64,000 nucleotides of DNA from an uncultured Candidatus Poseidoniales archaeon (GCA_963934165.1 CAWVXH010000002.1:38650-102649), one strand, 5' to 3'. Shown: positions 3,929-48,979, counted from the stretch's first letter. Translations and numbers: made by a program. Notes: generated by a model from the sequence alone, not told the origin.

Positions 3929-4648
3929 TCAATCTTTAGAGCCTAGGAAATATTCGCCTATTTCTGGATCGTTGAGAATGTGTTGAGCAGCGCTGGTATG
4001 GACAACTTTTCCGCCAGCTAATATGTATCCACGATCTGATCTTGCCAATGAAAGGCGGGCATTCTGCTCAACTATCAATACCGTAATTCCATCTTTTCTC
4101 AAAGAATCTATCCGCTCTATTATTTGTTGTTGATAGAGTGGTGAAAGCGCTGCAGTCGGCTCATCAAGCAACAAAAATTTCGGATTGGAAATCAATGCCC
4201 GAGAAATCGCCAGCATCTGCCTCTCACCACCAGATAGGGATGCTGCCAAATCATAAACTCGATCAGACAAATCTGGAAACATCTCCAATGCGCGCTCAAT
4301 TCTTTCATTGAGAAGTGCAGTTGGTAAATTGTTGCCACCCATCTGGAGATTTTCATGAACTGTGAGCGTAGGGAATACATTGTCCACTTGAGGGACATAG
4401 GCAATCCCACGATTGACTAATTGGTCAGTTCTCCAGCCTGATACGTCTTCGCCGTGATGCTTGACTATTCCTGAATAATGAGTTGCGATTCCGAATATCG
4501 TTTTGATTAGAGTTGATTTACCACATCCATTGGGTCCGATGATAGTAACGAATTCACCTTCTTCGATATAGAGGTCAATATCATACAAAATTTGTACCGA
4601 ACCATAACCACCATTCAGCCCTTTGACATCGAGTATTCGTTTGCTCAT
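3929..4648 (-). CDS. livF: branched-chain amino acid ABC transporter ATP-binding protein LivF
   Basis: Walker A GPNGCGKST, signature LSGGERQM, Walker B LLLDEP. The C-terminus ends EYFLG, as in LivF. Confidence 0.9.
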   Translation of the reverse strand: MSKRILDVKGLNGGYGSVQILYDIDLYIEEGEFVTIIGPNGCGKSTLIKTIFGIATHYSGIVKHHGEDVSGWRTDQLVNRGIAYVPQVDNVFPTLTVHENLQMGGNNLPTALLNERIERALEMFPDLSDRVYDLAASLSGGERQMLAISRALISNPKFLLLDEPTAALSPLYQQQIIERIDSLRKDGITVLIVEQNARLSLARSDRGYILAGGKVVHTSAAQHILNDPEIGEYFLGSKD

Positions 4649-5433
4649 TCACTTTCCTCCTTGACCCCAGGTGCACCCAGATAGGCTTCGATAACCGCAC
4701 GGTTTGATTTTACTTCTTCGGGAGTTCCCATCATCAAAATTTCACCCTCATTCATGACGATGATTCGGTCTACGCCTTGCCTGAGAATGAAATCCATATT
4801 ATGCTCGATGATAAGAATTGAAACCCCAGTCTCTGAAACGATTTTACGTAAATTATTGAAAATTTTCATCGCTAGAGGGCCGGCTACACCAGCTACTGGT
4901 TCATCGAGCAATAGCAATTTTGGATCCCCCATCATCGAGCGACCTATATCGACAAGTTTCGACTGACCACCAGATAATTCATTTGCTAAATTATGAGCCA
5001 TGTGTGGCACTTCGAGCTGATCTAAAGTTGCATATGCCTTTTCGAGTCGCTCACTTTCAGCAGGCCTGCTACCTGGGAATAATAGTGAAAGAAACCGATT
5101 TGGTGCGAATGGGGCTCTAGGAGGAACAAGTAAATTTTCGATAACTGTCATTTCTCGCCAAAGACGAGTGTGCTGGAATGTTCTGGTGAAACCGAGTTTT
5201 TGAATTTCATCCGGGCGCATGTTTGATGCATCAACTCCAAAGATTTCTACTGAGCCATTGGTCTGATTAAGCAAGCCGCTGATACAGTTGAATGTGGTAG
5301 ATTTACCGCATCCATTTGGACCAATCAAACCAATGAATTCACCTTCCTTTACTTCGAATGAAACATCTTTAACTGCGATGATCCCACCAAATTCTTTGCG
5401 TAAATTATCGACACGAAGTACTGTCTTGGACAT
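4645..5433 (-). CDS. livG: branched-chain amino acid ABC transporter ATP-binding protein LivG
   Basis: Walker A GPNGCGKST, signature LSGGQSKLV, C-terminal AYLG. It overlaps livF by 4 nt. Confidence 0.9.
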   Translation of the reverse strand: MSKTVLRVDNLRKEFGGIIAVKDVSFEVKEGEFIGLIGPNGCGKSTTFNCISGLLNQTNGSVEIFGVDASNMRPDEIQKLGFTRTFQHTRLWREMTVIENLLVPPRAPFAPNRFLSLLFPGSRPAESERLEKAYATLDQLEVPHMAHNLANELSGGQSKLVDIGRSMMGDPKLLLLDEPVAGVAGPLAMKIFNNLRKIVSETGVSILIIEHNMDFILRQGVDRIIVMNEGEILMMGTPEEVKSNRAVIEAYLGAPGVKEESE

Positions 5434-8400
5434 TAGTTCTCACCTCCCGGATTTGATTCAACACGAGGAGGTCGGTGAGGCACTTCAGGCAGAATTCCCT
5501 TAGCATTGAACTTGAGAGATAATATAATCAAACAACCAACTAGTAAGACTTTCACAAAAGCCATGTCGGCTGAAATTTCACCATAAAGGAATGATTCTGA
5601 AACTGATACTGGTCCGAGAAAAATTCCAGCAAAAGTGAAAGTGAAAGCGATTATCGCCCCATAATCTATAAGTTTCTTAGATCCTAATATGTATCCGATT
5701 ATCAACAAACCAAGTCCAATATTCACTACCTGCCAAGACTCCAAAACCACCCACGATACCAAACTATCAATTTGACCCGCTGTCGTATGCAGAGGAAGGG
5801 TCGATGAGCCTTGGCCAGCAACTAAGACGTTGAATACGAATTGCATCAAAACGATGATGAATGCACCGATGACCATTCCTCGGTTATTGGCAGCACCACC
5901 AATAATGAATGCCCCCCAAACCAAAAATGTCGAACGGGCCGGTGACAAGAAAGAAGGTTGGAAACCAGTCAATTTCCATGCCCATAGGGCCCCGGCAAAG
6001 CCAGCGATTGCTCCACCGAGAGCGAGGCTTGCGGCCTTATGAGTTAGAACATCATGACCATGATGCTGAGAAACAGCCTCGTCTTCACGAATCGAGCGGA
6101 GAATTCTCCCCCATGGTGAGCGCAATAGAACCTCTAGTAACCACCAAACGAAAAGCATTGAAATAATTCCAATAATAGCTAACAACATCATGTAAGGTGC
6201 TGGCTCACCTAATTCGAGAAGATTACCGAAAGTGTCGGCGATACTTTCGATTTCAACGGAATCCCTACATTCATCAGGGCTGAATGGATTGATAATATCA
6301 TCTGCAGTTCCAAGGATTGCATCCGGTCCGACCAGTGGATCTTTCATTGGGGTATTCCAACCACAGAACCACCAACCCTCCATTGGCAGAGCATACCTTG
6401 AAATCCCGATCGATGAACCCCATGAACCCGCCCTGAGTAAGGGCTCACCCATCAATAATACTCGAAGAATTTCACCGAGTGAAATCGTAACTATTGCGAA
6501 ATAATCGATACGCAACCTCGCCGTTGGATAAGCGAGCAACCAACCAAATCCGCCAGCGAGAGCAATACCAACTAAAGTCGCAGGCAATACCGGCCAACCA
6601 TATCCGTGAGAATCGCTAGGTGCGGTTAGAATACCGACGGTAATAGCGCCGATACCTACGAAGAAAATTACACCAAAATTTACCATGCCGGTGATTCCAG
6701 TATGGAAATTAAGAGAGAATGCCATCAGTGCGAAAATTGCTAAAGTGACGAGAACATTTGACACTTGTAATGTTTTTATAAATCTCATATTGTCTTGTTC
6801 AGCGACCGGAAGCCATTCTAAGAAAAGAAGTAAAATAATCAGTACCGAGAAAAACATCATCCAAGAGCCAAAGGGACTTTCTCGGCCAAAAGGTGCCTTT
6901 TTCTGATATATTTCTAAAAGACCCCCCCCCTCTTTATACTTCAGATATGCGAAAACCGCTACCCAAAACATCCCGATAATGAATACTCCTCGACTGAAAA
7001 AGTAAGGGAGTTTGGACAATATTATCAATGAAAATAATACCAATGGAATCATTTTTTGTTTGGTATCTAAGTCACTTGTTCGAGTGGATATCTTGTCAAA
7101 AACGCCTGATTGAATTTCTCTAATTGGTGAGTTTATTTTGCTAAACAATTGAGAGAGGTTTGAAGAATTTGATTTAACCGCTTCGTTAATCTTCATGCTG
7201 AAGATATTTAATTGGACTAAAATAGGCTTCAATGGGTCTTCTTCCTTACCCTGAATGAGAAAAACTCCCTCTACGATAGCTAGTAACCAGAGTAATATTG
7301 GCACCGCTGGCCAAATAATATCGCCGAAAGTAATCAACGATTCAAGCACTCCTAACTCACTCTGCATCAAATTTAACCAGCCTGTATTCAAATCAGAAAG
7401 AGCATTTACCGCCCATTCTTCATGCAAGTTAGGGGCTAAATCTGAAGGAGGATCAGGGATATCAGTCAGATCAAATGGGGCATCATCGAGAATAATCGTG
7501 CCATCCCCTCTACCGGTTAAAAACTCAAGGTTTGTGTCGACGCCTTCATTTATTTCACAGGCATTTGAACAAGAATTCCGTGCAAATGAATGCTCCTTAA
7601 TGAAATTGATAATACGGGAAAAGAACAGAGCTGCTACCGAGAGAATTAACATCGATTCTCCTCGAGCTGATTTTTTCTGATGGAATTGATGTGCACCGAA
7701 AATTCCTAGTGGGGAAAATGCCAGTAGAGCCGAAATTTTCGGATTTGATTTTTTGGTTGATTTTGCTTGCCGTCTCATTCGGTCAACCTTCCATTTCTCA
7801 TAGGCAGAACCAATTCCCTCTGGCATAATCATTAAAATTGCTACTAGGAAAATATAGGGCATTACACCATCTAATGCTGTATAATTTGAACGTTCTAGAG
7901 GCATGCCTACACCAATTAATATCGGTGAAGATAATGCTCTAACAAAGCCGACAATCAAGGAGCCGATTACCGCTCCAGGAATTGAGCCAAGTGTTCCGAG
8001 AACAATTATAGCGAATGAGGGCAGTAAAATTGTGAAAGCTGTTTCAGGAGTAAATCGTAAAGTCATCGCAAAAATTGCGCCACCCATGCCGGAAACGCCC
8101 GCTGAAAGGAATGCGCTCGTTAATTGGATTCTCTCGACATTGATACCGCTGCTTGCAGCCAACTCGGGGTTGTCTGAAACTGCCCGCATCCGACGGCCAA
8201 GTCGTGTTTTTCGAAGTAAAATAATCAAAGTGATAGCTGAAGCAAAAATCAGTATTGGCATGGCCGCTTTGTAATATGCATAACCAGTCGTAGCGTGAGA
8301 CACACAGTCATTAGCAACATCATACATCTCGAACATTGGTTTACTTCCAGTGACAGGGATGTGCTCCATCACAGTTTCACCGGTTGTTGAATCTACAACG

Positions 8401-9311
8401 GCTTGACAATTTCCGGAATTGTAGATTTGGCCTTCATCGAGGCTACGGTTACCGAAGATGAAACGGAATTTTTGAGTTGGTATATCCCAACGAAATGATG
8501 GTGTGCGCCAGTCTGCATCGGGCTCAAATATTTTTCTAGCCGAACCAAACCGCAGGTAAATTATTGCACGAAGAACGAGTGCAACACCCAAGGAACTAAT
8601 CAACATAATTTCTGGTTTGGCCTTAGAATCACGGAATCCTTTGTAGACTAGGCGATCGACAATTATCCCAGCCACTCCTGTCAAGAAAAATGCGAGAACG
8701 ATAGTCCAAAGCAAAACAGACCAAACCAATGTTCCATCAGTAGGTGCATCGTAAAGGGGGAAGAAATAATCACTCCAAACCATCACCATAGCAAGGTACA
8801 TTCCAATCATGAAAAATTCACTTTGAGCAAAATTCCCATAACGCTGAACCTTGTAGGTTAAGGTCAGTCCGACAGCAATCGCCAAATATGTTGAAGACCA
8901 TGTCAAAGTGCCAACTCCAATCGATATTAAATCGAGGGTTATCGTCGCTCCCCTATCCAATCCTATAAGCATAAATTCAATTGTCATTCCAACAATAAAT
9001 AGTAAAAATATCGGTGAAAGAAAAATACCAATTGTTCTAGGTGTACTTCGTTTAACATCATCAAAAAGAATCTTGATGAAAAAGAATCCACCGCCGATGG
9101 ATTCGACGGCTTGAAGCAACCAAACCATATCGTTCGGCATCCTTCCACCGATAACAGAATCAAATCCATTCAAAATACCGAAACCGTACAATAATCCGAG
9201 TGAAGAATCCAGCATAATCGCCATGGCGATGATGAATCTACGCTGTCCACGACTCAATGAATTCCATTGAGCCGATAATTGATTAAGCGCATTCCTAGAC
9301 ATGTTAGTCAC
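5433..9311 (-). CDS. fused branched-chain amino acid ABC transporter permease (LivH-like N-terminal half, linker, LivM-like C-terminal half)
   Basis: 1292 aa with many TM helices. The N-terminal half carries the LivH hallmark GRRMRAVSDNPELAASSGINV plus a roughly 100-aa extracytoplasmic insertion. The C-terminal half carries the LivM hallmark RSPWGRILRSIREDE. A roughly 350-aa middle region links them. A 1-nt overlap with livG indicates the same operon. Confidence 0.85.
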   Translation of the reverse strand: MTNMSRNALNQLSAQWNSLSRGQRRFIIAMAIMLDSSLGLLYGFGILNGFDSVIGGRMPNDMVWLLQAVESIGGGFFFIKILFDDVKRSTPRTIGIFLSPIFLLFIVGMTIEFMLIGLDRGATITLDLISIGVGTLTWSSTYLAIAVGLTLTYKVQRYGNFAQSEFFMIGMYLAMVMVWSDYFFPLYDAPTDGTLVWSVLLWTIVLAFFLTGVAGIIVDRLVYKGFRDSKAKPEIMLISSLGVALVLRAIIYLRFGSARKIFEPDADWRTPSFRWDIPTQKFRFIFGNRSLDEGQIYNSGNCQAVVDSTTGETVMEHIPVTGSKPMFEMYDVANDCVSHATTGYAYYKAAMPILIFASAITLIILLRKTRLGRRMRAVSDNPELAASSGINVERIQLTSAFLSAGVSGMGGAIFAMTLRFTPETAFTILLPSFAIIVLGTLGSIPGAVIGSLIVGFVRALSSPILIGVGMPLERSNYTALDGVMPYIFLVAILMIMPEGIGSAYEKWKVDRMRRQAKSTKKSNPKISALLAFSPLGIFGAHQFHQKKSARGESMLILSVAALFFSRIINFIKEHSFARNSCSNACEINEGVDTNLEFLTGRGDGTIILDDAPFDLTDIPDPPSDLAPNLHEEWAVNALSDLNTGWLNLMQSELGVLESLITFGDIIWPAVPILLWLLAIVEGVFLIQGKEEDPLKPILVQLNIFSMKINEAVKSNSSNLSQLFSKINSPIREIQSGVFDKISTRTSDLDTKQKMIPLVLFSLIILSKLPYFFSRGVFIIGMFWVAVFAYLKYKEGGGLLEIYQKKAPFGRESPFGSWMMFFSVLIILLLFLEWLPVAEQDNMRFIKTLQVSNVLVTLAIFALMAFSLNFHTGITGMVNFGVIFFVGIGAITVGILTAPSDSHGYGWPVLPATLVGIALAGGFGWLLAYPTARLRIDYFAIVTISLGEILRVLLMGEPLLRAGSWGSSIGISRYALPMEGWWFCGWNTPMKDPLVGPDAILGTADDIINPFSPDECRDSVEIESIADTFGNLLELGEPAPYMMLLAIIGIISMLFVWWLLEVLLRSPWGRILRSIREDEAVSQHHGHDVLTHKAASLALGGAIAGFAGALWAWKLTGFQPSFLSPARSTFLVWGAFIIGGAANNRGMVIGAFIIVLMQFVFNVLVAGQGSSTLPLHTTAGQIDSLVSWVVLESWQVVNIGLGLLIIGYILGSKKLIDYGAIIAFTFTFAGIFLGPVSVSESFLYGEISADMAFVKVLLVGCLIILSLKFNAKGILPEVPHRPPRVESNPGGEN

Positions 9312-9485
9312 TCCTAGTTCAAACGCAACAATATCCAGTAATGATTGTTGGGGAACTTGTTTATCAATTTCAGATTGAAATTTGATAGTGGTTTTGAGAT
9401 TGTCTTTCTTTCACTTCCAAATTTTCCTCATAGAGCCCTTTGGAATACATCGATTATCTCAATTTTTCAAGCAATTAGAGGGGGG

Positions 9486-9516
9486 GCGCCACGGCGGGAG
9501 AATCCCACCGTGGCGC
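9486..9516 (-). promoter_or_regulatory. GC-rich hairpin between the binding-protein gene and the permease gene
   Basis: gcgccacggcgg-gagaatccca-ccgtggcgc forms an 11/12-bp stem. It sits in the 249-bp gap between the binding-protein stop and the permease start. Confidence 0.5.
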
Positions 9517-9560
9517 TTTACGTCCCATTACTCGATCAGGTTAGTTTCCTAATTTACTAA

Positions 9561-12500
9561 TCAAGCAGTTACAAGGCCGCCATCGCGGCTCCAGTATCGT
9601 GTGCAATCGAAGGAAACTGCTCCATCTGCTGCAACACTGAAGGTTCCAACACAATATCCGTTTCCTGCAACATCTCCAACTGCGTCAAATGTGTGAAGAC
9701 CACTTGCACCAACGAAGTTGTTACCTACTGCTGGGATGATCGCACCTAGTGGAGTTCCCGGAGGGCTCGCTAGTTGGGTAAATACTGAATATCCCATAAT
9801 GAGCATTGCATCGAAAGCTTCTGCTGTGTAAATTCCACCTGCACAATCAGGTATTTCACCGCAAATTGCTGCGAAAGCCATCGAGCGCTCACTAGGAACT
9901 GCTGATGCTGGCTTGGTTGCTACAACTCCATCGACAATAGAAGTATCAGCCATACCTGCTGCTAATCCTTCTTCAGCGACACCATCTCCACCGAAAATTA
10001 ATCCGGTGAATCCTTGTGCCGAAAGTTCTTCGACAAGTGCTGCACCATCAGCTGCGTAAGAAACTAGCATTACACTGTCACAGTTAGCATCCATAACTTG
10101 CTGAACTTGTGCAGTGAAATCAGTTCTTGTATCTTCATAACCAATCCTTGCACAAAGCACCGTTCCATCTTCTGTCCATGCTGCATCGAATGAATCAGCT
10201 AAGCCAGATCCGTAATCGTTAGTCATGTACAATAGAGCAACACTGGTGCCGCCATCAGCAGCAACAACGTCTGCGAGAGCTGGTCCCTGAATCGCATCGC
10301 TTGGTACAACACGGAAGAAGAGCGGGTATGCGGACGCATCGCTCAATCCTGGGTTGGTACTAGCGTAGGAAATCATTGGGATACCCGCCGCCGAAAGAAT
10401 ACCATTAGCTGCCATTGTTGCACCAGAACATGCTGCTCCGACAACTCCGACAACTCCTGCATCAATCAATGTCTGTGCTCCTGTTGCCGCAACGTCACCG
10501 CTGCAACCAGAATCAACCATTACTAATTCAAACTGAAGTCCTGCACCCCATCCACCGATATTCATCATCTCGAGTGCAATATTAGCTGCAACACCGAATC
10601 CAGGTGCATAAACTGCAATTGGCCCAGTCATTGGATTCAAGAAACCAATCTTAACAGTCATTCCTGTGAATTCAGTTTCCTGCATTCCTCCATCCAATGT
10701 CCAGTAGTCATAGCAACCGAAGTAAACATCGACTGAGGATAGAGCATCAAAGGTACAGAACTCAAATCCTGAACCAGCGACATCTCCATTCGCATCGAAT
10801 GTGTGGGAGCCGCTTGCACCTTCGTATGTGCCGATCATTCCCATGTGTTCTACCATATTTGCTCCATCTTCCATCATAGCAGCCTTACCCATAATCATCA
10901 CTGAATCATATGTTTCTGCTGTGTAAACTCCACCAGCACATTCTGCATCTGCAGCACAGCGCTCATTGAAATCTCCGAAAGAGGATGCTGCGCGAGACTT
11001 AACCGCGATTAATCCGTCTAGGATATATGGCGCGGCAGATAATCCAATTACTTCTTCAGATGCTAGAGCTTCCATACCGATAACTGGAATACCTAAACCA
11101 GCGAATGCCATTTGTTCTAGAAGAGCTAATCCATCATCAGTATAGCTGACGAGAACCATCGAGTCACAACCAGCATCTGCAATAGCCTGAATTTCTGCAG
11201 AGAAGTCCGTTTGCATTTCATCGTATCCGATTTCAGTACAAACTGAACCACCAGCACCAGCCCAATATCCGCCAATAACAGCGCCCATTCCGGCACCGTA
11301 ATCATTGGTCATGTAAACTAGAGCAGGATTTGCAAATCCTTCTGACATCATCAAAGTAACCATTGCTGGACCCTGAATTGTCGCAGGAGGAACTACTCTG
11401 TAGAAGTCCGGCGCCATGCTTAGAGCAGGATCTCGGCTAGTGGGGGAAATCATTGGGATTCCCGCTGCCGAAAGAATTGCATTCGCTGCGTGTGAAGCTG
11501 CGGAACAAACTGCTCCGATAACTCCTACAACACCTGCATCTGCCAATGTTTGTGCTCCGGTAGCTGCTGTATCACCGTTGCAACCGGAATCTGCTTCAAT
11601 TATCTCGAAGTTTCCGCCCATTGCGTTCAGATCAGCCACAGCCATGGAGGCCGCTTGAACTGCAGGTCCAATCAATCCAGCAACAGGGCCGGTTCTAGGA
11701 ATTAACAATCCAAGTTTTGTAGGCGGGTATGTGCAACTACCATCATTGGATGTCGCATCGGCGTCGTAGTTGACTGCATCCGAATCCATGCACCCATATG
11801 CATCGTTGCTTGCAACGCCTGCATAGTGGAATGCTATCTCATCAGCGATTGCGTTGCCGATATCGACATCGAAACCTTCTGCATTACCATCAGCATCAAG
11901 ATTCTCAAATGGAGGGTATGAAGTATCTGAGCAGAATTTTAGATTACCTGATTCTAGAACTTGTGTTAGTCTGCTACCTTCTGTTGCCATAGGGTATACT
12001 GTTGCTGTGTCTACGGTGCGGTCATCGGTTAGGACAACTGCGCCATCGAACCATGCACTGAAAATTAAATCATATTCTCCAGAATCAATTAGTGCAGTAA
12101 TTGCTACATCCAATGCGCCAAGAAGTTCTGAATCGCCATCATCGACAGCAAGCCCGAATGTCTCATCTGAGAAAGTAACCATTAGATCACCAGATAGTGC
12201 CATTACAGGAGAGTCTCCTATAGCATAATCTGCATCACCGTTACTGATTGATGCCGTTACTGACGGGAAGTCAGCGTATGCAACAATTGTTGCGTCTGGT
12301 AAATTTGCATTAGTCCAGATATCTGAAGTTGTTCCAGATTGGACTGCTACTCTTGTACCAGCAGCATTTAGATCAAGAGCATCAGATATCATAGCAGAAC
12401 CTGAGGCACCGATTACACCCTGGCTACTTGTGTAGTAACCACGTGTGAAATCAACCACAAGTTCTCTTTCATCGGTCTTGGTCATAGCAGAAAGGATTGC

Positions 12501-12797
12501 GTCACACATCTCTCCGTCGTTCAAGTTGGGGATAATCGGATCCCAGTCTGAAGTCACGAAAACTGCGTTGACATCGTCAGCGGCAGTTAGTGACCATTCA
12601 GGTTCCGGTTCGTCGTGCGTACACGAACCATCATCGGATGTCGCATCGGCATTGTAGTTGTTCGCAGTAGCGTCCATACAGCCCAATACATCTTCCGGTT
12701 CAGGTTCAGGTTCGTCTTCCCCGCCTAAGCAACCAGCGAACGCAGCCGCTAGCATACTTAGGGTCATTATCATTGCAATTATTTTCTTATTTTCCAT
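9561..12797 (-). CDS. tri-domain lipoprotein substrate-binding protein (PBP2-like domain plus two tandem LivK-type domains)
   Basis: Start taken at MENKKII (12797), which has a signal peptide and an AGC lipobox-like site. The listed ORF begins 21 codons earlier. Residues about 90-350 resemble polar-amino-acid PBP2 binding proteins. After that come two repeated LivK-like modules (DSGCNGDTAATGAQTLADAGVVGVIGAVCS and DSGCSGDVAATGAQTLIDAGVVGVVGAACS). Each is preceded or followed by a short two-Cys motif. Confidence 0.85.
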   Translation of the reverse strand: MENKKIIAMIMTLSMLAAAFAGCLGGEDEPEPEPEDVLGCMDATANNYNADATSDDGSCTHDEPEPEWSLTAADDVNAVFVTSDWDPIIPNLNDGEMCDAILSAMTKTDERELVVDFTRGYYTSSQGVIGASGSAMISDALDLNAAGTRVAVQSGTTSDIWTNANLPDATIVAYADFPSVTASISNGDADYAIGDSPVMALSGDLMVTFSDETFGLAVDDGDSELLGALDVAITALIDSGEYDLIFSAWFDGAVVLTDDRTVDTATVYPMATEGSRLTQVLESGNLKFCSDTSYPPFENLDADGNAEGFDVDIGNAIADEIAFHYAGVASNDAYGCMDSDAVNYDADATSNDGSCTYPPTKLGLLIPRTGPVAGLIGPAVQAASMAVADLNAMGGNFEIIEADSGCNGDTAATGAQTLADAGVVGVIGAVCSAASHAANAILSAAGIPMISPTSRDPALSMAPDFYRVVPPATIQGPAMVTLMMSEGFANPALVYMTNDYGAGMGAVIGGYWAGAGGSVCTEIGYDEMQTDFSAEIQAIADAGCDSMVLVSYTDDGLALLEQMAFAGLGIPVIGMEALASEEVIGLSAAPYILDGLIAVKSRAASSFGDFNERCAADAECAGGVYTAETYDSVMIMGKAAMMEDGANMVEHMGMIGTYEGASGSHTFDANGDVAGSGFEFCTFDALSSVDVYFGCYDYWTLDGGMQETEFTGMTVKIGFLNPMTGPIAVYAPGFGVAANIALEMMNIGGWGAGLQFELVMVDSGCSGDVAATGAQTLIDAGVVGVVGAACSGATMAANGILSAAGIPMISYASTNPGLSDASAYPLFFRVVPSDAIQGPALADVVAADGGTSVALLYMTNDYGSGLADSFDAAWTEDGTVLCARIGYEDTRTDFTAQVQQVMDANCDSVMLVSYAADGAALVEELSAQGFTGLIFGGDGVAEEGLAAGMADTSIVDGVVATKPASAVPSERSMAFAAICGEIPDCAGGIYTAEAFDAMLIMGYSVFTQLASPPGTPLGAIIPAVGNNFVGASGLHTFDAVGDVAGNGYCVGTFSVAADGAVSFDCTRYWSRDGGLVTA

Positions 12798-12975
12798 TGA
12801 GTATTCACCCTTCAGTCTCCTACGCGAGAAAGTATTTCTATTATAGACATTATTACGCAATTGTCAAAAAGGTGCTTTCTTAGGGTGATTGATTAAGGAA
12901 ATATCTATGTTTTAGATAGAAAAAGAGTTTTTCGACCCATCAAAGAAAATATCAAACAGAATTGTTCATGCGCTA

Positions 12976-19507: not shown

Positions 19508-19584
19508 TGGCGAATCTGCCGCGATTCGAACACGGGTTTCCAGCTCCGGAGGCTAGAGTGATATCCAGGCTACACTACAGATTC
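19508..19584 (-). tRNA. tRNA-Arg (anticodon CCG)
   Basis: Reverse complement folds as a cloverleaf. Acceptor stem is GAATCTG/CAGATTC. The T-arm is CCGTG-TTCGAAT-CGCGG. The anticodon arm is CTAGC-CTCCGGA-GCTGG, giving anticodon CCG. CCA is encoded. Confidence 0.85.
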
Positions 19585-19727: not shown

Positions 19728-19804
19728 TGGCGGACCCACCGCGATTTGAACACGGGTTTGAGGCTCCGCAAGCCCCAGTGATATCCAGGCTACACTATGG
19801 GTCC
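19728..19804 (-). tRNA. tRNA-Arg (anticodon GCG)
   Basis: Acceptor stem GGACCCA/TGGGTCC is perfect. The T-arm is CCGTG-TTCAAAT-CGCGG. The anticodon arm is GGGGC-TTGCGGA-GCCTC, giving anticodon GCG. CCA is encoded. The D-arm and T-arm are identical to the neighbouring tRNA-Arg. Confidence 0.85.
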
Positions 19805-24419: not shown

Positions 24420-26582
24420 TCAATAGTCGAATAGCGTTGCGCGCTTTTCTTCGTCTTTTTTTGTTGTTTCCGGTTGCGAATTTACATCACTGACTAACAA
24501 ATTGAATTCAACTTCGTTCAATATTCGAACACCTAATCGGGTTGCCTTTTCAAGTTTTGAACCTGCAGATTCGCCAGCGATTAAAACGCTCAATAGACCC
24601 GAAACAGAAGAAACAACTTTGCCACCTTCTGCCTTAATTAACAATGCTATTTCCTTCCTTGGCCGACTCAATGTTCCTGTTATGCAGAATGTTTGGCCGA
24701 AAAAATTTCCCTCAGAGGTGGGGGCCGATTGGTCTGAAATTTCTAGTTGATTTGTCAAATCGACGACTGTTGCTAATCTAATTGCGATTCCATTCAATAA
24801 TTGAGTTGCAACAGTCGTACCTACTCCTTCAATTTCGATTAATTGTGATATCGCAAAATTATGTTTGAATGGTTTACCAGTCTCATCTTCACCGACTTTA
24901 TCATCGCGGGCTTCAACCAACTCAAGAAGAGTTGTGATTGTTCCGACTTTTTCTGCGATACTAACGGCGATTTCTGGGCCTATTCCGGGTAATCCTAATG
25001 CCGATAGGAATCGGCTGAGAGTTAGCGATCTAGTCGCACCTAGTTCATCGATTACCTTCGTTGCAGATCGCTCAGCCATCCGCTCTAATTGGAGTAAATC
25101 TGGGATATTTAGTCGATAGAGATCTGCAAGTGTGTTGACCAATCCTTCAGCGATTAATTGAGCTGCTAATTTTTCGCCGATCCCATCCATCTCAAGTGAG
25201 CGACACCAATATACTATCGAGCGCTCGAGCCTAGATGCACAATCAAGATTTTTACAACGAATAAATGCCCCATCTTCGACTAATTCGAAGGAGCAGGAGG
25301 GACAGATTTTCGGGATAGAAATCTCGGCTATATTTGGTAAAATTCCAATAAATTCGGAGCCATCTGCATGAGAGAGACCGCTAATATCAATAATTTTTGC
25401 TGCGCCGAGGGTTTCAATGATTTTAGGAATTACATCACCTCGTCGAACTATTCTTACCTTATCACCAATTTTTATTCCCAAACGCTCTAATTCACCTGAA
25501 TTATGTAGTGTTACATTCTCGACAGTCACTCCTGAAACCACCACTGGTGCAACACGAGCAACCGGAGTTACCGTTCCTGTTCTGCCGGTTTGCCAATCGA
25601 CATCCATCAACACACTAAATGCTTCTTCTGGCGGGAATTTCCACGCCAATGCCCAACGGGGATGATGTGCGGTTTTACCGAGCAATCCGCGTTTTTCGAG
25701 CTGGTCTAATTTGATGACTATCCCGTCAATCTCCCAATCCGCATCTGCTCGATGTTCAGCCCAATATTTGGTCACATCAATGATTAAGTTTGATGTCGAA
25801 TCATCATCATTTCCTTTGACTACGGTATTTCCAGCAATTTCAATTCCAATCGTAGTAAGCCATTCATTTGCTTCGGAGTCGAAAATATAATTTGGTGGTT
25901 CTGGGCTATCAGGATGACGATATTCATTGCTTGGGAATTGGACATCGTAGGCAAGGAATATCAAATCAGCAGCATCACCTTTTCCTGATTCGATATTTTT
26001 TTGCCGTAGAGAACCAGCTGCTAGATTTCGGGGATTCGGAGCAATTCCAGAATATTTATGTCTAAAAATTGCCAGTGGCATCACGACTTCACCTCGAATA
26101 TGACAATCTCCTTGCCAACTAAGTGATTCGGGAATGTTAGCTATTCGACGAGCGTTGGCAGTCACGTCCTCTCCACGCAAACCACTGCCTCTCGTCGCTG
26201 CCCTGACCAGTCGTCCGCGACGATATTCTAATGAGAGAGCTGAGCCATCAAGTTTTGGTTGACAAACAAATTGCCTACCATGGGCGGTAGTTTGGCCAAC
26301 AAAGTGAGATATCTCATCCGATTCTGTGGCTTTGTCAAGACTACTCATAGGAAAAAGATGGGTGATTTTTTCGGTTCCAGCCGGTGGATCTGACCCGACA
26401 CGATTCAATTGTGGATTTTCTGAATCTAAAGACTTTAATTCATCCCATAATACATCAAATTCAGCATCTGATATTTCCGGAGAGGCTTCGTTGTAATAGA
26501 GGTCTGAATGATAAGAAATTTGCTCGGATAACCATTCGATGAGCGCCCGCTCATCACCTACGTCTGGGCGCTCTCCAACCAT
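24420..26582 (-). CDS. ligA: NAD-dependent DNA ligase
   Basis: Adenylation motif KLDGSA(L). Zn finger CPSCSFELVEDGAFIRCKNLDC. HhH repeats (LPGIGPEIAVSI) and a C-terminal BRCT region (FCITGTL) are present. Confidence 0.95.
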   Translation of the reverse strand: MVGERPDVGDERALIEWLSEQISYHSDLYYNEASPEISDAEFDVLWDELKSLDSENPQLNRVGSDPPAGTEKITHLFPMSSLDKATESDEISHFVGQTTAHGRQFVCQPKLDGSALSLEYRRGRLVRAATRGSGLRGEDVTANARRIANIPESLSWQGDCHIRGEVVMPLAIFRHKYSGIAPNPRNLAAGSLRQKNIESGKGDAADLIFLAYDVQFPSNEYRHPDSPEPPNYIFDSEANEWLTTIGIEIAGNTVVKGNDDDSTSNLIIDVTKYWAEHRADADWEIDGIVIKLDQLEKRGLLGKTAHHPRWALAWKFPPEEAFSVLMDVDWQTGRTGTVTPVARVAPVVVSGVTVENVTLHNSGELERLGIKIGDKVRIVRRGDVIPKIIETLGAAKIIDISGLSHADGSEFIGILPNIAEISIPKICPSCSFELVEDGAFIRCKNLDCASRLERSIVYWCRSLEMDGIGEKLAAQLIAEGLVNTLADLYRLNIPDLLQLERMAERSATKVIDELGATRSLTLSRFLSALGLPGIGPEIAVSIAEKVGTITTLLELVEARDDKVGEDETGKPFKHNFAISQLIEIEGVGTTVATQLLNGIAIRLATVVDLTNQLEISDQSAPTSEGNFFGQTFCITGTLSRPRKEIALLIKAEGGKVVSSVSGLLSVLIAGESAGSKLEKATRLGVRILNEVEFNLLVSDVNSQPETTKKDEEKRATLFDY

Positions 26583-28448: not shown

Positions 28449-31400
28449 TCATAAGCTGAAGCCGTCGTTCTCATTTTCTTCATCAATTCCAGCAATTCTT
28501 GTGTTACCTTCAGAATCGATGAACTCACCGGCTTTCACACGCGAGCCATAAAGGGTCGATTCATTAGACGATGTTCGGTTCAACATACTCTCCCCGAGAG
28601 CATTGCTTAGATGATTGATAAGCGCCTGTAGAGCTGCAATTGCTCGATCCCTTTGATCCGCCCCGATTTCGTGGTCTGAATATCGCGCTTCTTCAAAGAT
28701 TGAAAACAATGTATCCAAATCTTCAGGTGGCATTATTCCTCCAAGCATGGCATTTATTGCATCCTCAAATTCACGAGTTGTTTCATAGACTTTCTTCATA
28801 GCTCCACGGCTGCGGAAGAAACGAACTAAATCCTTGTAACAATTGAAAATTGTCTGAATATAATCATTCGATGCTTTCAATGACATCAATGAATCTGTGA
28901 GGATTCCACGAATTATTTCGATTCGGCGGCGCTCATTGTAATTTCGATACATTATCGCACCGATTAGGACAGCGAATGCTAGAGCAATTCCAATAACTGT
29001 CAAGACCTTGAACGTGAAGAAATTCGCGTTTTGTTCAACAAGAGGCTCACCGAGATAAATCACCGGTGTGCTGTTAAGGAACTCTTCTTGGAAAAACGAC
29101 GATTCTTGGAAATGAATCAGAACTCGCCATTTGCCATTCACAGCAGTAATATCGAGCTCTCCAGGCACTTCTTCTCCGGTGTAAATAAAGCTGAAATTCG
29201 CCTCACCATGCTCATTTGTCACAGCGTATTCAACATTATTTGTTTCCCATCCTGTGCCATTCCAATACTGAAAGGTGAAGATAACAGTTTCACCTTCAAC
29301 TGAAACATCCAAACGGTCTCGCAAAATTGCCACGGCCCCAGCGACTTCATCACCGATCTGGTAACCCAATGGATTTGACCAATGGTTCTTCAGCAAAATA
29401 TCAACCTTGCTTCTGACTAGAACTTCGACATCTTGGAACGAACCATTGACGACTGGGGTCGTCTCAGCCCGGCAACCTCCGGGTAATTCCTTAGTCGGCT
29501 CATATGCAACTCTAATCGTCCTGAAGCCCTCTAACTGGTTTCCGTTTGGCTCAACACCACGGCGGCTTGGATTATCATCCGGATCGCCGGAATACCATTC
29601 AATTTCACCAGTGCCATCACGAGTGATGGCAGTTGCGATAGGACGGGTATTAGTTTCAGGGTCGAGGTAGATGTTGAGACACTTTCCTCCGACTGGATTA
29701 CCATTGACTTGAGTCAACATTGCATCGATATGGAACGATTCCTTTAGGTAAAGAACTGGGAAAACAGTTCCGTTTTGGAATTGATATGTGTCGACATCAG
29801 TACGGAATGGCCCTACTTCTTGGAAGGTCATTGTAGAATTAGAAAAGACAGGGAAGAACTTCGTTAAACTCGAATTTTTATATCGATATTGATCTCCGGT
29901 TTCATATGAAAGGAAATTCACAGTTACCTTCGCTTGACCTGCTTGAACGTCATTTAGTGGGCAAATTACATCGAACATGCCATTGATGTCAGTTATATCA
30001 CCTTGGCAAGATTTTACGCCTAAATCAGAGCCGACCATTTCGTATTGAACCTGGATTGCTCGGTTCGATAGATTCGAGCCAAGCTCATCGATTAACTGAC
30101 CGGTAACAACCATCGGTTTATCGATAGCTTGGCCAGTAACTGGGTCAATTTCAGAGGTGTAAACAATCTGATCGTCAACAGAAAGCGTGGTGCGGCCAAT
30201 CAGGCTGAATCCACGCTCATCGTGACGGAAAATCTTTCGATAATGATCGCTGTTGAGAATTTGGTCGCAAGGATCCCAAGCACCTGAAATTCTCAACATT
30301 TCCTCATCGAGAGGTTCACAACCTTCATGGGGAAGGTTTTCTGCGAAACGAAGGATGACATTGACTGGTCCAAATCCGTCAGGAAGGAAGGAATTAGGGT
30401 CATCTCTGAGCAATTGTGGATCTAACAACATTCTGTAATTAATTGAACCCGCATTAGGGCAAAGCGTCTCAACGATTTGCCTATGAATGCGTTGTTCGAA
30501 ATCGACGCCTTCAAGAATCACTAAAATTTCTCCGCCATTTTCATCACATCCATCGAGGAATTCGCCTTTATCCTTGATAGCGGCGGTTCGATTATCGTCT
30601 GTTACCTGAGCACTGAATTCCCAATAATCTCCACTCGAAAGACGATTTTCTGTCGTACTTTGGAGAGACACAAATGTTCGAGAAACAACCCAGAGGTTGA
30701 TTTCGTGAGCACTGCCTTGGCGATATGTGTCGCCTGGATATGTGTAACTTAGAGTGAAATTACCGAGTTGATGCATTTCATCAATTGTCAAATTGACTTG
30801 AAGAACACCGTTATGATCGGTTATCGCTATATCGCTAGTTCCGTCTGCAGACCAAGTGAAATTCACTGGAGCATCGCGAACAGGCTGATACGCATTGTCG
30901 ATGAGCCGTGCCTCAATTGTTGTATTTTGTCCTCGATAAAGACGTGGTATCAGATTCATTTGGAAATCGGTAGTACCAATGACTGAGATGTTCACATATG
31001 CACCTGTCGGCGCGAGAACATTCGATTGATTTCCAGTAAAGTAGAAATTCGAATTTGTAAAATCTGCACGGATTCCAAATACGCCCGCTGCATATTGAGA
31101 ATACCAGGTCCAGTTGTAATCGAATACTGCTTCGCCGTTCACCATATCTGGAGCACGCGCAAATCCAGTCTCTTGGGAACCTGCGAAAACACCGTTGTGA
31201 TCTACATCAACCTGTAGAGCCATAGGGTCGTGAGGCCATGCGGTCATAGTTCGGTTCCAAACCGTTCCAATAATTCTGAACGTTTCTCCTGTGAACATTT
31301 CTGGTACAATTTCACATCTCGCATCGCTTTCCGGATCTCTTGGGTCAATCGGTCCACATGGTGGAACGTTGAAATCCCCCCCATTTTGCATTGCGATGAA

Positions 31401-34400
31401 CCAATGAGTGCCATTCGAAGAGAGGAATGGGCGTAATCTACCAGACTCACCCGTCAATCCTTCAGGCGTACCATCCCAGAGCATAGCATATGGTTTCCCA
31501 AGACTTTCTGTACCGAAATCAAGGCCTGCATTAGCCAAGGACGGGGAGTGGAATAATGCTCGCCATGCTCCGAAAGAAGAGCCGGTGAATTGAGTTGAAT
31601 CCCAAAAGTAAACTGGCCGGATGGATGGGGTTATCACATCTGCTTCGATATACATTCTATGCATTGATCGGATCGCGAATGAATCTGTTTCATCGCCCTC
31701 TAGATATGGCCAAGGCCATTCTGCACCTAAATCGGGTCGAGACATACCAATGAAAAGATAGTCGCCAATCGGTAAACTGGTGTTTGTATATTCATATATT
31801 CCAATCATGCTGTGTGATTTTGAAGTGTTATCCCAAACAATTTCCTCATAAGCACCAGGAACTTTTCCTACTCCATTATCAATTGTTGAATTCCATTGAA
31901 CCTGTTTCCAAATACCTTGGCTTCCGCTCGATTGAACAAAGGAGAGTGAAACCCACCCTCCTGAATCAGATCGATAACCGTAGCCATAACCATCGAACAC
32001 AGTAGGATGAGTGGCATTACCAAATGGGCCACCGTGGACGGTGAACGAAATCGGTGCATGTGAGAGTCTGTTGTCAAATTTACCTCTCTCCCAATCTGCA
32101 GTATAGTGTACCTTGTAATCGATGAAGAGTGGCTGTTCATCACTACGGAAATATGTCCATGCAACATAATCAATTGTTGTGTTCGCTCGGACTTCGGTTG
32201 GAACCGGTTCTGTTGCAGCACCATCGTGAATGAACATTTCAGTTACTTCTGCATATACATTATAAGTCAAATTAGAACCGACTGTCAAATCCTCTGGGAA
32301 GAGGAATTGACCAACCACATAATTACCGTTCTCGTCGGTAAGAACATCGATTGTCTCAAGAGCAGTTGTACCATTACGAGCCCAATCAATATGGATTTGA
32401 ACGGGCAGATTTGGGGCTGGCATGAAGACACCCTGCTCAGGATCTAGCCAATTTACAGTACCATTGAACTTGACAGCATAACGATAATCCAGCCACATTA
32501 CTTCTGGGACGGTTAGTGTAATTCTAGTAGGTATTTTATCATCTTCATCTAAGATGCCATCATTGTCAGAATCCCAGTCAGAAGTATTTCCATCCTCTTC
32601 CTCAAACTGATCCCAATCCGTATCTGTGCGATTATCGGTATCGTCATCTTCATCGATTGCATCTGGGCCGGTTTGAGGATCTGTTGGATTAGCAATACCT
32701 TCGCCGCCTCCGAAATCATCATGATCCCATGGATTAGTTGATTGATTATTGAATCGAGATGGCCAAAGCATAACTTCGTCAGCATCTTCCATTCCATCTG
32801 AATCATCATCCAAGTCAATATCATCTCGCAACCCATCATTATCGTGATCCCATGCTGAAATTAGAGGAGTCGCTGTAGCCAATTCGAGAGTGTTGACTCG
32901 CCCATCCCCATCCCAATCATCATCAGCCCAGTTCAATATTCCATCATTATCGTGATCCCAAACAAATTGTTCTTCTCCGACGAAACAAAGTAGTTCCTGG
33001 TCTGCATCGAGAATTCCATTGTTATCATCATCTGGATCCTCGCCATCCGGAACACCATCGTTGTCATTGTCGACATCGTAATACTTCGGATGTAGTAATC
33101 CTTGCCCTAGTATTCCAACATCCCAAACAGCTTGGTACCATCCGTCGTTATCCGGGTCGGTATCTGTCCCATCATCATCATTGTCATCACAATTTGAACC
33201 GATGAAGAAATTGCCAGCCGGCTCGGTATTAGCATCGTCATCATGGTCATCATTTGTGTCAACTTCGAAATAATCCCAGATACCGTCATTATCATCGTCG
33301 ACATCCCAATGATCGAAAACATTGTCGAAATCATCGTCCAAGTCTGCTGTATCATTGAACATACATTGTGGGTTCATATTTCCTGAAACGGGTGCTCCGC
33401 AATCATCATCTGGATCGACGTCATTATTGAGTAAATCAGCCTTTTCATCGGGGAACCAATTTGCATTTGAATCAGAATTCCACTGGAAAAAGCCGTAGTT
33501 TAAGCCAACGTAAGCAATCCACAAATCTCGGTTATTTGCTATTTGATTGTATGTTACGGCAGAGCTTGGGCTAGGATTACTCCCTGGGTCGAAAGTAAAC
33601 CAGAAGCAATTCTTGTTACATGTCCATTGCCCCTGAGAATTACTGCCATTATATGGACCATCATCATATTCTGAATCTGGGCGAGAACTGTATGGATATG
33701 TGTAAACCAATTGGCCTTGATTGGTTGAACTTGGGCTAATAATCGGTGCTCCGTAGAGCCATGCATAGAACAAACCGCAAACGTGTTCCTCAGCTAATCC
33801 TGCCATAAATGCGAGGAAAAGGGAAGAGCCACATTCATTATCATCAAAAGTACCACCAAATTTGATGTCATTAACGTCGAGTTGCCCATCATTACCTTCA
33901 TCCTGATCCCACCAATCAGGCAGTCCATCTCCATCTTGATCGATATCGATTCCGTTGATTAGAGAATCTCCATCAGTATCTATATCAAAGAAATTGCCGC
34001 CATTGAAAGCACTCCAACGTTGAATAACATGCCAATAAAGTTCTGGGACCTTTCCGCTATCATCAGGTGAGACTGCCGAATCATATCCATTGTAATTCAA
34101 AATAAATCCATCTTCAGAAGTGAATGGATTAAACATCCATGATTGATTCCAATAGAAGTTATGGGCGATATCGTGTGCATATATCTGGCCATCATTCGAA
34201 CCATCGAGCAAATCACCATCGTCAGTTGGATAAGTCGAATCAAAAATATCAGTAGTGTCGAAGTCTTGAATTCCACAATTTCCATCATCTGGGTCGTAAT
34301 AATCAGAAATTCCATCATTATCATCATCCCAATCCTCATCATTCTGTAATCCATCGCCATCGATGTCTGTGTCGAGATGGTTAGGTCCGTCGTCTCGATA

Positions 34401-43900: not shown

Positions 43901-44316
43901 AAGAATGGGAAAAAATCATTACTCCGGCATTCTTGAAAGAGAGGGTGGAAATTATCTTAAATTCATTCAACACATGGAACCAATTGATCGAAATAGCTAA
44001 TCGAGATGATGTAGAATTAGAAGAATTCTTGTTGAAGCATGAGCAGATTTTTGAAATGGTTGACCAATATAAAAGGGCGCGTTCTAATTCAGTACCAATC
44101 CGAACAGAATTGAAAGGCAAGGAAATTTATCCAGAAAATGGTGATATCGAAATTATGCAAGACGCCGCAGGATTGGCAAAATTGCCCCTTCAAGAAATTG
44201 GTTGCGTCTTAGTCGCGACAAGAGATTCTGATTTTAGATTGATTTCACGTGCTCTAGAAGAGGGATATGGTTTCGGCGTTATCTCTGATGCTCAGCAATT
44301 AAACAGTCGAATCTAA
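40924..44316 (+). CDS. large (1130 aa) protein with an RGG/Arg-rich N-terminal segment, a long helical middle and a C-terminal PIN-like nuclease domain
   Basis: Residues about 66-92 are RPRGANRSHRSRGGRRGGRDSRRG. Residues about 909-1130 are KPLILIDTNVLIDAL ... VTIPP ... DIEIMQDAAGLA ... CVLVATRDSDFRL. Conserved acidic positions fit a PIN fold. Two C9/G7 homopolymers lie in the gene. Confidence 0.5.
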   Translation: MEWLNLEQYLLDCLEDLHKAGDDEVRRKNAIQRSATWGLLDKSWKPLAIMAASKEAPIVKEDSQDPSGRPRGANRSHRSRGGRRGGRDSRRGFEDNLPSPDRVLRDDHSAGFKLAVLIAQKHKMTTNWNDSWDGNLDLVRIECAQGLHPVWSRLAREAPLFAEMERFPVNEIEVEVYDSSEWIAAAHIDPEDSKQLREWLSLPPPFRLNSGQALALDKIKKDLAGKPRPQSWPKTMKEYLRELEGISAILESLILLGSKHLDSIDSLGRVGNNDSLQSLAEKHARLSSHRNGNFDEWSTSIQQTGDDNLSKAIRVEVWKNYNSSYSNLTKKELLTGLKILSEESIPHALNWRIAELSSESGGMKEALAISQKLSIENDSHLSIALKISTATKSPILEEKIISVISNISEKRVAEIMQNDNLPISIQLAAAAVLTNINDVRYTNEILSVFTRAADVTSLAEKMIADDSLALAYPFRALMVCQLISAEDALNISSNLKNLKSHALLALGESTEDDTLSEVSLSLISLLAGVPSNMDSIHQKLDTDGVVILNQVRRALSSDGDGLVKESLIESLEKSIRTADVSHLEARLFSALIDALYLNLAALGLQMGEVDKKESSIEIFEKLSGRNELTNRTIRSLDDLVVEHSIGIVSLEKWYRINDKDSAEYHVVRAAVERERGNRANAARSYKEASIKIVEDYENSSILLRKSLIEFAHAGVWDEAVEMIENNPQLMAAVTQKFQLYLHTCADVSAGYTDKATRRLIEFVSKEERTDPEFEGVDAEFNKRRKESLELLQRYPDEHNLPKEMFSGRIRAAFKTLEKSGASRQSDLERRFHFELHDKKDIFELTLLGGQIAEKKPLRGIRRFEEAIETGFFDDLGIRRLRDTQRAVFVSHSNSIPVKDRRTLHHLGLKPLILIDTNVLIDALKDDLLREISSDQYGSLDWTVERSFHMMLIRRSKGDVFVTIPPSARREFKHRTKSPDSVLDLFEGVYINHQEWEKIITPAFLKERVEIILNSFNTWNQLIEIANRDDVELEEFLLKHEQIFEMVDQYKRARSNSVPIRTELKGKEIYPENGDIEIMQDAAGLAKLPLQEIGCVLVATRDSDFRLISRALEEGYGFGVISDAQQLNSRI

Positions 44317-45786: not shown

Positions 45787-46065
45787 CTAATCCCCCATCA
45801 ACGAAGGTGACTCGGAGTTCATCAATGAATCCACAAGGTCACAATATCGCTTCATCGCTTCATCGGCAGAAACTCCTCGTAATTTTCTCCAAGCGCGAAA
45901 TTTGGCCATGGCAACAAGGCCCGATATACCACTGATGCCTCTGGCATCGTTATCTGTCGCCTGTTTGTATAATGCATAAAGTTCCAAGAGTTGTTCATCA
46001 CTTGGCTTTACTTTCAATTTCCAAACCCTCTTGCTCGATTTTTCGAAGCGCCTCAATAGGTTCAT
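45787..46065 (-). CDS. acyl-CoA-binding protein (ACBP)
   Basis: KPSDEQLLELYALYKQAT ... KFRAWRKLRGVSADEAMKRY are the ACBP helices. The start Met was chosen to give an ATGA overlap with the upstream hydrolase stop. Confidence 0.75.
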   Translation of the reverse strand: MNLLRRFEKSSKRVWKLKVKPSDEQLLELYALYKQATDNDARGISGISGLVAMAKFRAWRKLRGVSADEAMKRYCDLVDSLMNSESPSLMGD

Positions 46066-48970: not shown

Positions 48971-48979
48971 TTTCTCACC

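Follow-up and report, generated by a model that had tools for sequence, protein, structure and literature searches.

Fused LivH–LivM permease and three-domain receptor with a circularly permuted binding domain in a predicted amino-acid importer operon of Marine Group II archaea

The HAAT family (TC 3.A.1.4) of ATP-binding cassette (ABC) importers, with LivJ/LivK-LivHMGF of Escherichia coli as a representative, was described in a 2013 TCDB survey as comprising systems whose two membrane proteins are separate and have 9-11 helices apiece (PMC3654945). Chained receptor domains are known from GlnPQ of Lactococcus lactis, a PAAT system in which amino-acid-binding domains of different specificities stand beside one translocator (PMC8025302). 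The present analysis concerns a four-gene operon in a 64,000-nucleotide stretch of DNA from an uncultured Candidatus Poseidoniales archaeon (GCA_963934165.1, CAWVXH010000002.1:38650-102649), the whole of which is called the window. As judged from its sequence, the operon very probably encodes a HAAT-family, LivHMGF-type amino-acid ABC importer of a Thalassarchaeaceae-like Marine Group II (MGII) archaeon, in which the LivH-like and LivM-like permeases form one polypeptide and the receptor carries three binding domains, the first of them circularly permuted. It is a known type of transporter, with all of its parts from well-known families, in an unusual build that is found throughout the lineage.

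All positions are given in window numbering, and the four operon genes follow one another head to tail over 3929-12797 of the minus strand, in the order receptor, fused permease, LivG-like ATPase, and LivF-like ATPase. The receptor open reading frame (ORF) is open over 9561..12860, and the ATG at 12797 gives a gene (9561..12797) for a substrate-binding protein of 1078 residues with a signal peptide. After a gap of 249 bases follows the permease gene (5433..9311), which encodes 1292 residues when read from a GTG; the most likely start is the ATG at 9302, three codons in, giving 1289 residues, because it has AGGAG eight bases upstream and a 98% identical homologue (P0001) was called at 1289 residues. 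A first-pass annotation, made from the sequence alone, had placed the receptor and permease at 5433-12797 with lengths of 1078 and 1292 residues, which is correct apart from this probable change of the permease start. The LivG-like ATPase (4645..5433; 262 residues; ABC_tran and BCA_ABC_TP_C) has base 5433 in common with the permease ORF and overlaps by 4 bases with the LivF-like ATPase (3929..4648; 239 residues; ABC_tran). The former is kept 3' of the permease in related loci, where the latter is kept as well. In NCBIfam, the two score best with LivG (E 6e-65) and with LivF (E 3e-62), respectively, both below the equivalog cut-offs.

Compared with the E. coli system, every part belongs to the matching family: the ATPases to LivG/LivF, the permease to BPD_transp_2 with LivH and LivM types, and the receptor to Peripla_BP_6 with LivJ-type contacts. 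The two membrane proteins that are separate in HAAT systems are a single polypeptide here, which is an organizational and not a mechanistic difference, with three to five extra linker helices, an N-terminal extension of three helices, and three additional elements outside; the receptor has three domains and is predicted to be anchored, and the NCBIfam scores of all the system proteins lie far below the equivalog cut-offs. With GlnPQ, the operon shares chained binding domains at one translocator, and the PBP2 domain of the receptor is homologous to the substrate-binding domains SBD1 and SBD2 of that transporter. In contrast, the GlnPQ domains are all PBP2-type, unpermuted, and fused to a BPD_transp_1 permease, whereas the chain described here mixes two structural classes, has an N-terminal anchor in place of the permease fusion, and has a BPD_transp_2 partner.

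The permease has two BPD_transp_2 stretches, at residues 134-493 (E 2.4e-38 when scanned alone) and at about residues 850-1160 (E 7e-35). The best NCBIfam matches are UrtB/LivH for the N-terminal half and LivM/UrtC for the C-terminal half, so that both permease types, whose fusion the first-pass annotation had claimed, are found by Pfam and NCBIfam within a single ORF. The chain opens with an N-terminal extension (residues 1-125; 8937..9311) of three membrane helices predicted from hydropathy and loop charge, which has no Pfam match and is conserved in homologues. It is followed by the LivH-like core (residues 134-493; 7833..8912), which takes 360 residues to cover Pfam profile positions 4-269; by a linker delimited by hydropathy, charge, and alignment (residues 494-849; 6765..7832); and by the LivM-like core with its C-terminal helices (residues 850-1292; 5436..6764). 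The linker, put earlier at roughly 350 residues, measures approximately 350-355 between the Pfam-defined core boundaries. Where one extra extracytoplasmic insertion had been noticed, three predicted outside elements of 80-92 residues are present, with two cysteines apiece. Two of them are the extra 80-90 residues that each core contains between its fourth and fifth helix: in the LivH-like core, residues 256-345 (8277-8546), predicted to lie outside by loop charge analysis, and in the LivM-like core, residues 956-1035 (6207-6446), with invariant C983 and C1015, predicted to lie outside from alignment and topology. The third is an acidic domain of the linker (residues 573-664; 7320-7595) with invariant C581 and C585, recognized from charge and alignment. 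All six loop cysteines of the permease fall within the three elements, and four of the six are invariant. Comparison of the three with one another as possible repeats gave no similarity above shuffles (z -1.4 to 0.9), and the similarity of the N-terminal extension to the linker is marginal (z 2.9).

The conserved coupling loops of permeases of this kind are cytoplasmic, and they correspond here to residues 368-395 and 1063-1095. Hydropathy, loop charge, and these coupling loops agree, and a consistent topology is obtained: we infer an N-terminus inside, three extra helices, and a nine-helix LivH-like core that would end inside in a stretch of 12 Lys/Arg, after which the linker helices would carry the chain across so that the LivM-like core starts from the outside. 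The predicted inside loops contain 54 Lys/Arg in 283 residues and the outside loops 21 in 386. The linker helices are predicted at residues 553-572, 665-687, 753-772, 775-792, and 808-834; in the alignment, clades either have or lack the pair at 753-792 as a whole, by which parity is preserved. A TM2-like (PF05154) motif at residues 521-564 scores 20.3 bits, below its threshold of 27.9, and has an invariant G..G.H motif; its hydrophobic stretch at residues 524-541 is probably non-spanning, as parity and charge suggest.

The receptor consists, from its N-terminus, of a lipobox signal peptide, the permuted PBP2 domain, and two LivK-type domains (D2 and D3). The Pfam scan, which had been named beforehand as the check on which the first-pass annotation could fail, finds two permease types and three binding domains, namely one SBP_bac_3 and two Peripla_BP_6, in keeping with the proposed chain of a polar-amino-acid PBP2-like domain and two LivK-type domains. 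The signal peptide, read from the sequence, covers residues 1-23 (12729..12797) and ends in AAFAGC; the N-terminus MENKKIIAMIMTLSMLAAAFAGC matches the lipoprotein signal pattern [LVI..][ASTG][GAS]-C with LAAAFAGC, and G22 and C23 of the lipobox are invariant in 27 homologues. By hydropathy, the signal peptide is the only hydrophobic segment of the receptor, and a tether by an N-terminal lipid or membrane anchor is a reasonable prediction. Of the lipid anchor claimed earlier, the motif stands, and the modification itself is deduced from that motif only. Two cysteine spacer modules were located by motif scan, CMDATANNYNADATSDDGSC at 12621..12680 and CMDSDAVNYDADATSNDGSC at 11733..11792. Such modules are approximately 20 residues long with the consensus GC[MT]D..A.NY....A..DDGSC and the two receptor linkers contain 0-3 of them according to lineage, the position of module 1 itself holding 0-3 copies among homologues. 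Neither a Pfam match nor an occurrence elsewhere in the window was found for the module, which was noted also in homologues (P0133, P0221, P0232); it is possibly a disulfide-stapled spacer.

The PBP2 domain, of the polar-amino-acid receptor class (PBP type II, cluster F), spans residues 76-325 and scores 87.6 bits with SBP_bac_3 against a Pfam cut-off of 26.4, with 86 PDB relatives at E<=0.01 (best 8.5e-27). It is circularly permuted and does not keep the canonical order of elements, because Pfam profile positions 38-131 align to residues 76-251 ahead of positions 1-40 on residues 286-325, and residues 62-245 of the amino-acid-binding protein 5t0w align to residues 76-250 ahead of its residues 13-61 on residues 274-322. 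The first segment (residues 76-251; 12045..12572) is thus the counterpart of the C-terminal three quarters of a canonical domain, and the second (residues 274-325; 11823..11978) that of the strand and helix at the canonical N-terminus. In GlnP (6h30), the domain also aligns across the junction between SBD1 and SBD2, as would fit if a duplication had been followed by loss at both ends. An AlphaFold2 model of residues 61-340 is of moderate quality, with a predicted local distance difference test score (pLDDT) of 71, and the relocated strand and helix are among its best-predicted parts (block-mean pLDDT 69-90). Foldseek places the model among amino-acid-binding proteins with approximately 160-180 of approximately 225 target residues aligned, a partial coverage as expected when a sequential aligner is used on a permuted domain.

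Residues W85, S103, T106, R111, G155-T156-T157, and D195 of the first PBP2 segment and Y294, P296, F297, and E298 of the second are invariant in the 27 homologues. Among them are the equivalents of Y14, F52, S69/S72, R77, S120-T121, and D161 of LAO/HisJ. We take R111, D195, S103, T106, and T156-T157 to be the contacts of the LAO/HisJ type, as in the published structures of these proteins, to the alpha-carboxylate and alpha-ammonium groups, to which the aromatic W85 and Y294 would be added. The homologues are only approximately 70% identical over the domain, yet the ligand-contact positions are invariant, and for this reason the domain is very probably a working amino-acid site.

Domain D2 (residues 361-700; 10698..11717; Pfam envelope 360-671) and domain D3 (residues 714-1078; 9564..10658; Pfam envelope 714-977) match Peripla_BP_6, the type I (LivJ/LivK-like) receptor family, with E 1.4e-39 and E 6e-41, respectively, and are 44-61% identical to each other within one protein. 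Both were compared with LivJ (1z15), the contact-residue roles being those of the published LivJ structures. D3 keeps Y18, C78-S79, A100/T102, Y150, and Y202, with E226 replaced by D, and its pocket motifs are near-invariant in the 27 homologues. In D2, the equivalents of S79, Y150, Y202, and E226 are kept, Y18 is replaced by L, and A100-A101-T102 by T-S-R. In this domain, the window and its two closest relatives (P0122 and P0123) have Y18 changed to L, YAST to PTSR, and GADG to GMEA; these changed motifs are common to them only, whereas D2 of most lineages has D3-type motifs. D2 is 98% identical within this clade and 50-61% identical to other clades, and the PBP2 domain and D3 are 80-91% and 91-92% identical within the clade, respectively, and both mostly approximately 70-80% outside it. 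As D2 is the most conserved domain within the clade yet the most divergent between clades, its pattern is that expected of a shift of specificity followed by purifying selection, and not of decay. In another homologue (P0228), the PBP2 domain is 94% identical to that of the window, while D2 is only 50% and D3 only 59% identical, which suggests domain-level recombination between receptor lineages or paralogues.

The receptor has 772 homologues at E<=1e-5, the best 120 of which are all 1015-1181 residues long with the same Pfam set; the best 120 permease homologues are all full length at 1237-1346 residues. Those that are named among the best 120 of each are assigned to Poseidoniales, Marine Group II, or Thalassarchaeaceae. 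Genomic loci were surveyed with one genome per GTDB species, by which 136 loci matched and 80 were kept. Most of the kept loci match the whole receptor at 42-68% identity, and all are from MGII-type archaea except one (L051), a metagenome-assembled genome (MAG) labelled only 'bacterium'. The whole receptor-permease operon is present twice in some genomes of Thalassarchaeaceae, as observed in MAG JAJPRD01 (L023 and L027) and in one other MAG (L017 and L031).

An exhaustive search of 1.84 billion cluster representatives with the permease returned only 80 proteins at E<=1e-30, and among the best of these are other fused LivH-LivM proteins of 861-1336 residues and a compact one of 664 residues. 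The compact proteins (P0332, 664 residues; P0254, 861 residues) likewise have both permease types in one chain and show that being fused is in itself nothing unique; with a much shorter chain, they have no long linker, no N-terminal extension, and no outside insertions. Another fused protein (P0245) is named Poseidoniaceae (MGIIa) by NCBI, and in loci of its type the fused permease lies 3' of a receptor with two Peripla_BP_6 and no PBP2 domain. Two MGIIa-type operons (L081 and L084) resemble that of the window in having a fused permease, of 1008-1020 residues, after a multi-domain LivK-type receptor and before LivG and LivF. They differ in the receptor, which has 803-804 residues with two Peripla_BP_6 and no PBP2, in a shorter linker that is not alignable, and in the absence of the ACGUAAA motif that marks the intercistronic hairpin of the window; in L081, a GC-rich hairpin stands at the same position. 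The permuted PBP2 domain looks like a later addition to an older permease fusion and doubled LivK-type domain, because these MGIIa-type relatives have the fused permease with a two-domain receptor. On this sequence comparison, the Thalassarchaeaceae form is distinguished by its long linker, by the hairpin with its motif, and by the permuted PBP2 domain. The LivG-like ATPases of the two MGIIa-type operons are unusually long (409-447 residues), and one of the loci has a second two-domain LivK-type receptor gene 3' of the ATPase genes (L084, 12875-15301).

The gap between the receptor and permease genes contains an RNA element (9471..9535, minus strand), identified by folding and covariation, that is composed of ACGUAAA, a 14-bp GC-rich hairpin (9486-9516), and a C-run. 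ACGUAAA begins 38 bases 3' of the receptor stop codon, and the hairpin has a minimum free energy of -36.2 kcal/mol (z -5.6). Each of the 61 related loci whose spacer is intact has the element 3' of the receptor gene. When 58 distinct sequences are aligned, 97.4% of the cells are paired and 12 of the 14 pairs have compensatory changes, with double changes in 137 cells against 45 in shuffles; when the partner columns are slid as a control, pairing falls to 34-53%. The functional strand would be the sense RNA, to which approximately 28 G-U cells and the one-sided flanking motif point. A covariance model scores 48-76 bits on the sense strand of the MGIIb loci within the model against 17-35 bits on the antisense, and it finds exactly one sense copy per locus, with no second copy in 0.9 Mb; MGIIa-type loci give weak partial matches only, at the same place. 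No Rfam family matches the hairpin, and the motif ACGWAAAGS alone is not enriched in the window. Archaeal termination is usually by oligo-T, and a run of 7-10 T directly 3' of the hairpin is present in approximately 14 related loci, where the window instead has CCCCCCCUCUAAUUG. Stem-loops after binding-protein genes are also known from bacterial ABC operons, for example the repetitive extragenic palindromic (REP) elements of malEFG and hisJQMP, which similarly place a stable hairpin between a highly expressed receptor gene and a gene for a membrane component. The archaeal element differs from these in being single-copy and operon-specific, with a conserved 5' ACGUAAA and no Rfam family. We read it as a putative intercistronic terminator or 3'-end stabilizer, by which the receptor would outnumber the permease, and the conserved hairpin is a candidate for a new archaeal cis-regulatory RNA.

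From these features, a course of transport can be proposed. The LivH-like and LivM-like halves would be joined by three to five extra helices, giving the odd number of crossings that the fusion needs, and the outer face of the permease would be enlarged by the three added loops or domains with their cysteine pairs. The receptor would be tethered outside the membrane by its N-terminus, each of its domains closing on an alpha-amino acid, and the liganded LivK-type domains would dock on the enlarged outer face and trigger ATP-driven import. Three tethered sites, with a D2 pocket changed in the clade, might widen the range of substrates and raise the probability of capture in dilute sea water; the broad or cooperative capture suggested in the first-pass annotation is plausible as a putative role of the three-domain receptor. 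The hairpin would end or stabilize the receptor transcript, so that the receptor outnumbers the permease. In its fullest form, the proposal is a single HAAT-type translocator served by three tethered modules of two structural classes, in which the permuted PBP2 domain would dock on a BPD_transp_2 permease via the new outside domains and an operon RNA would set the ratio of receptor to permease. This full form is possible but doubtful; if true, it would be a cross-class pairing of receptor and permease of a kind not described before, from an archaeal group that ranks with the most abundant in the ocean.

Several points weigh against the proposal. HAAT importers carry hydrophobic or branched-chain amino acids, and in some subfamilies urea or amides; the NCBIfam scores below the equivalog cut-offs mean that branched-chain specificity cannot be assumed. 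The permease topology was read from hydropathy and charge only, and the parity argument would have to be revised if residues 524-541 spanned the membrane. An AlphaFold2 model of the permease (residues 93-1292, from a 17-sequence alignment) reached a pLDDT of 37 and a predicted template modelling score (pTM) of 0.23 and was unusable, contributing nothing to the topology; neither sequence nor profile search found a solved relative in the PDB copy searched. The archaeal lipid modification of the receptor is deduced from its motif, and the missing T-run after the window hairpin makes it uncertain whether termination, or else stabilization or processing, is the role of that element. A more basic doubt would be that the long ORFs arose in assembly, by frameshift or chimerism, from livH and livM genes or binding-protein genes that are in fact separate, and the permease is indeed broken into two frames in two loci (L013 and L065). 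These breaks, however, fall exactly at runs of N or scattered N. Enough downstream sequence for counting is available in 59 loci, and the 57 of them without N bases, taken as clean, are from independent projects and all have the permease as a single ORF in the order receptor-permease-LivG-LivF; all are Poseidoniales and mostly Thalassarchaeaceae (MGIIb). Hundreds of full-length proteins are present in databases, and the linker is conserved among homologues with invariant residues, so an assembly error is almost certainly not the explanation. The check for frameshift artefacts, which had been singled out in the first-pass annotation, thus leaves the long ORFs intact in 57/57 informative assemblies; they are genuine, and the architecture is a trait of the Poseidoniales lineage as a whole.

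The route of the PBP2 ligand is the least explained part of the proposed importer. PBP2-type receptors normally serve BPD_transp_1 permeases, on which they are known to dock, and no such permease is encoded in the operon, whose sole permease is BPD_transp_2, or among the 15 neighbouring window ORFs that were scanned. The domain might then not feed this permease at all and instead supply polar amino acids to a separate PAAT-type (AapQMP-like) transporter from another locus, or act as a local trap or sensor that modulates the LivK-type domains. A separate aapJ-type system has been reported in the same archaea (PMC9723583), and the MGIIa-type relatives with only two LivK-type domains mark the PBP2 domain as an add-on. 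On the other side, every MGIIb species has the domain in covalent linkage with the LivK-type domains and in the place closest to the anchor, and the three added outside elements of the permease could offer it a new docking surface; we regard a separate role as a serious possibility, with somewhat less than an even chance. That the domain is instead a spacer that has degenerated and does not bind, the remnant of a truncated tandem repeat, would agree with its make-up, the C-terminal three quarters of one domain and the N-terminal quarter of the next, with its alignment across the GlnP junction, and with low AlphaFold2 confidence around part of the pocket. The canonical contact positions are nevertheless all invariant in the 27 homologues, and the relocated strand and helix are among the parts modelled best, which makes a mere spacer highly improbable. 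Decay rather than re-specialization might likewise be read into D2 of the window's clade, as three of its pocket motifs are unlike those of all other lineages and no other domain diverges as much between clades. It is an unlikely reading of D2, since the 98% identity within the clade, against the lower values of the PBP2 domain and D3, argues for purifying selection and the equivalents of S79, Y150, Y202, and E226 are retained.

The proposed importer is of interest because Marine Group II archaea are abundant and uncultured. A gene annotated as livK is reported from metatranscriptomes to be one of the most strongly transcribed Thalassarchaeaceae genes (PMC9723583), and for this reason, the receptor is probably a major archaeal uptake route for dissolved amino acids in sea water. 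A branched-chain amino-acid binding protein has been reported in MGIIb and not in MGIIa (PMC6336850), and amino-acid transporters of MGII have been detected in Atlantic metaproteomes (PMC5776962). What is called 'livK' in these archaea has three predicted binding sites of two classes, and the branched-chain label is unsafe. The permease is a natural single-chain LivH-LivM unit, from a family without a sequence-detectable solved structure in the PDB copy searched; in the PBP2 domain, a binding-protein fold that has been much engineered occurs naturally in circularly permuted form; and the two together are a test case for the ability of a PBP2-type receptor to function with a BPD_transp_2 permease. 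In the literature searched, no description was found of a fused LivH/LivM, of a three-domain receptor of Poseidoniales, of a natural circular permutation of a substrate-binding protein, or of the hairpin. The proteins themselves are already present in NCBI, UniRef, and JGI under generic names, a circumstance that, like the permutation of the PBP2 domain and the fused LivH-LivM proteins outside this lineage, goes beyond the first-pass annotation.

The rest of the window is ordinary archaeal chromosome with MCM, ribonucleotide reductase, tRNA, and beta-oxidation genes. The last of these include adjacent genes for an acyl-CoA dehydrogenase and a fused 3-hydroxyacyl-CoA dehydrogenase/enoyl-CoA hydratase (46062-51364, minus strand), in agreement with the use of fatty acids reported for MGII. 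Two tRNA-Arg genes with anticodons CCG and GCG lie approximately 140 bases apart at 19508-19584 and 19728-19804 (minus strand), and at 24420-26582 (minus strand) this archaeal genome encodes a DNA ligase of the NAD-dependent, bacterial LigA type, which has a BRCT domain. Two ORFs, of 1130 residues (40924-44316, plus strand) and 444 residues (59607-60941, minus strand), have no Pfam match at E<=1e-5. An ORF of 2650 residues at 28449-36401 (minus strand), with weak Big_1 and DUF4129 matches only, probably encodes a giant surface protein.

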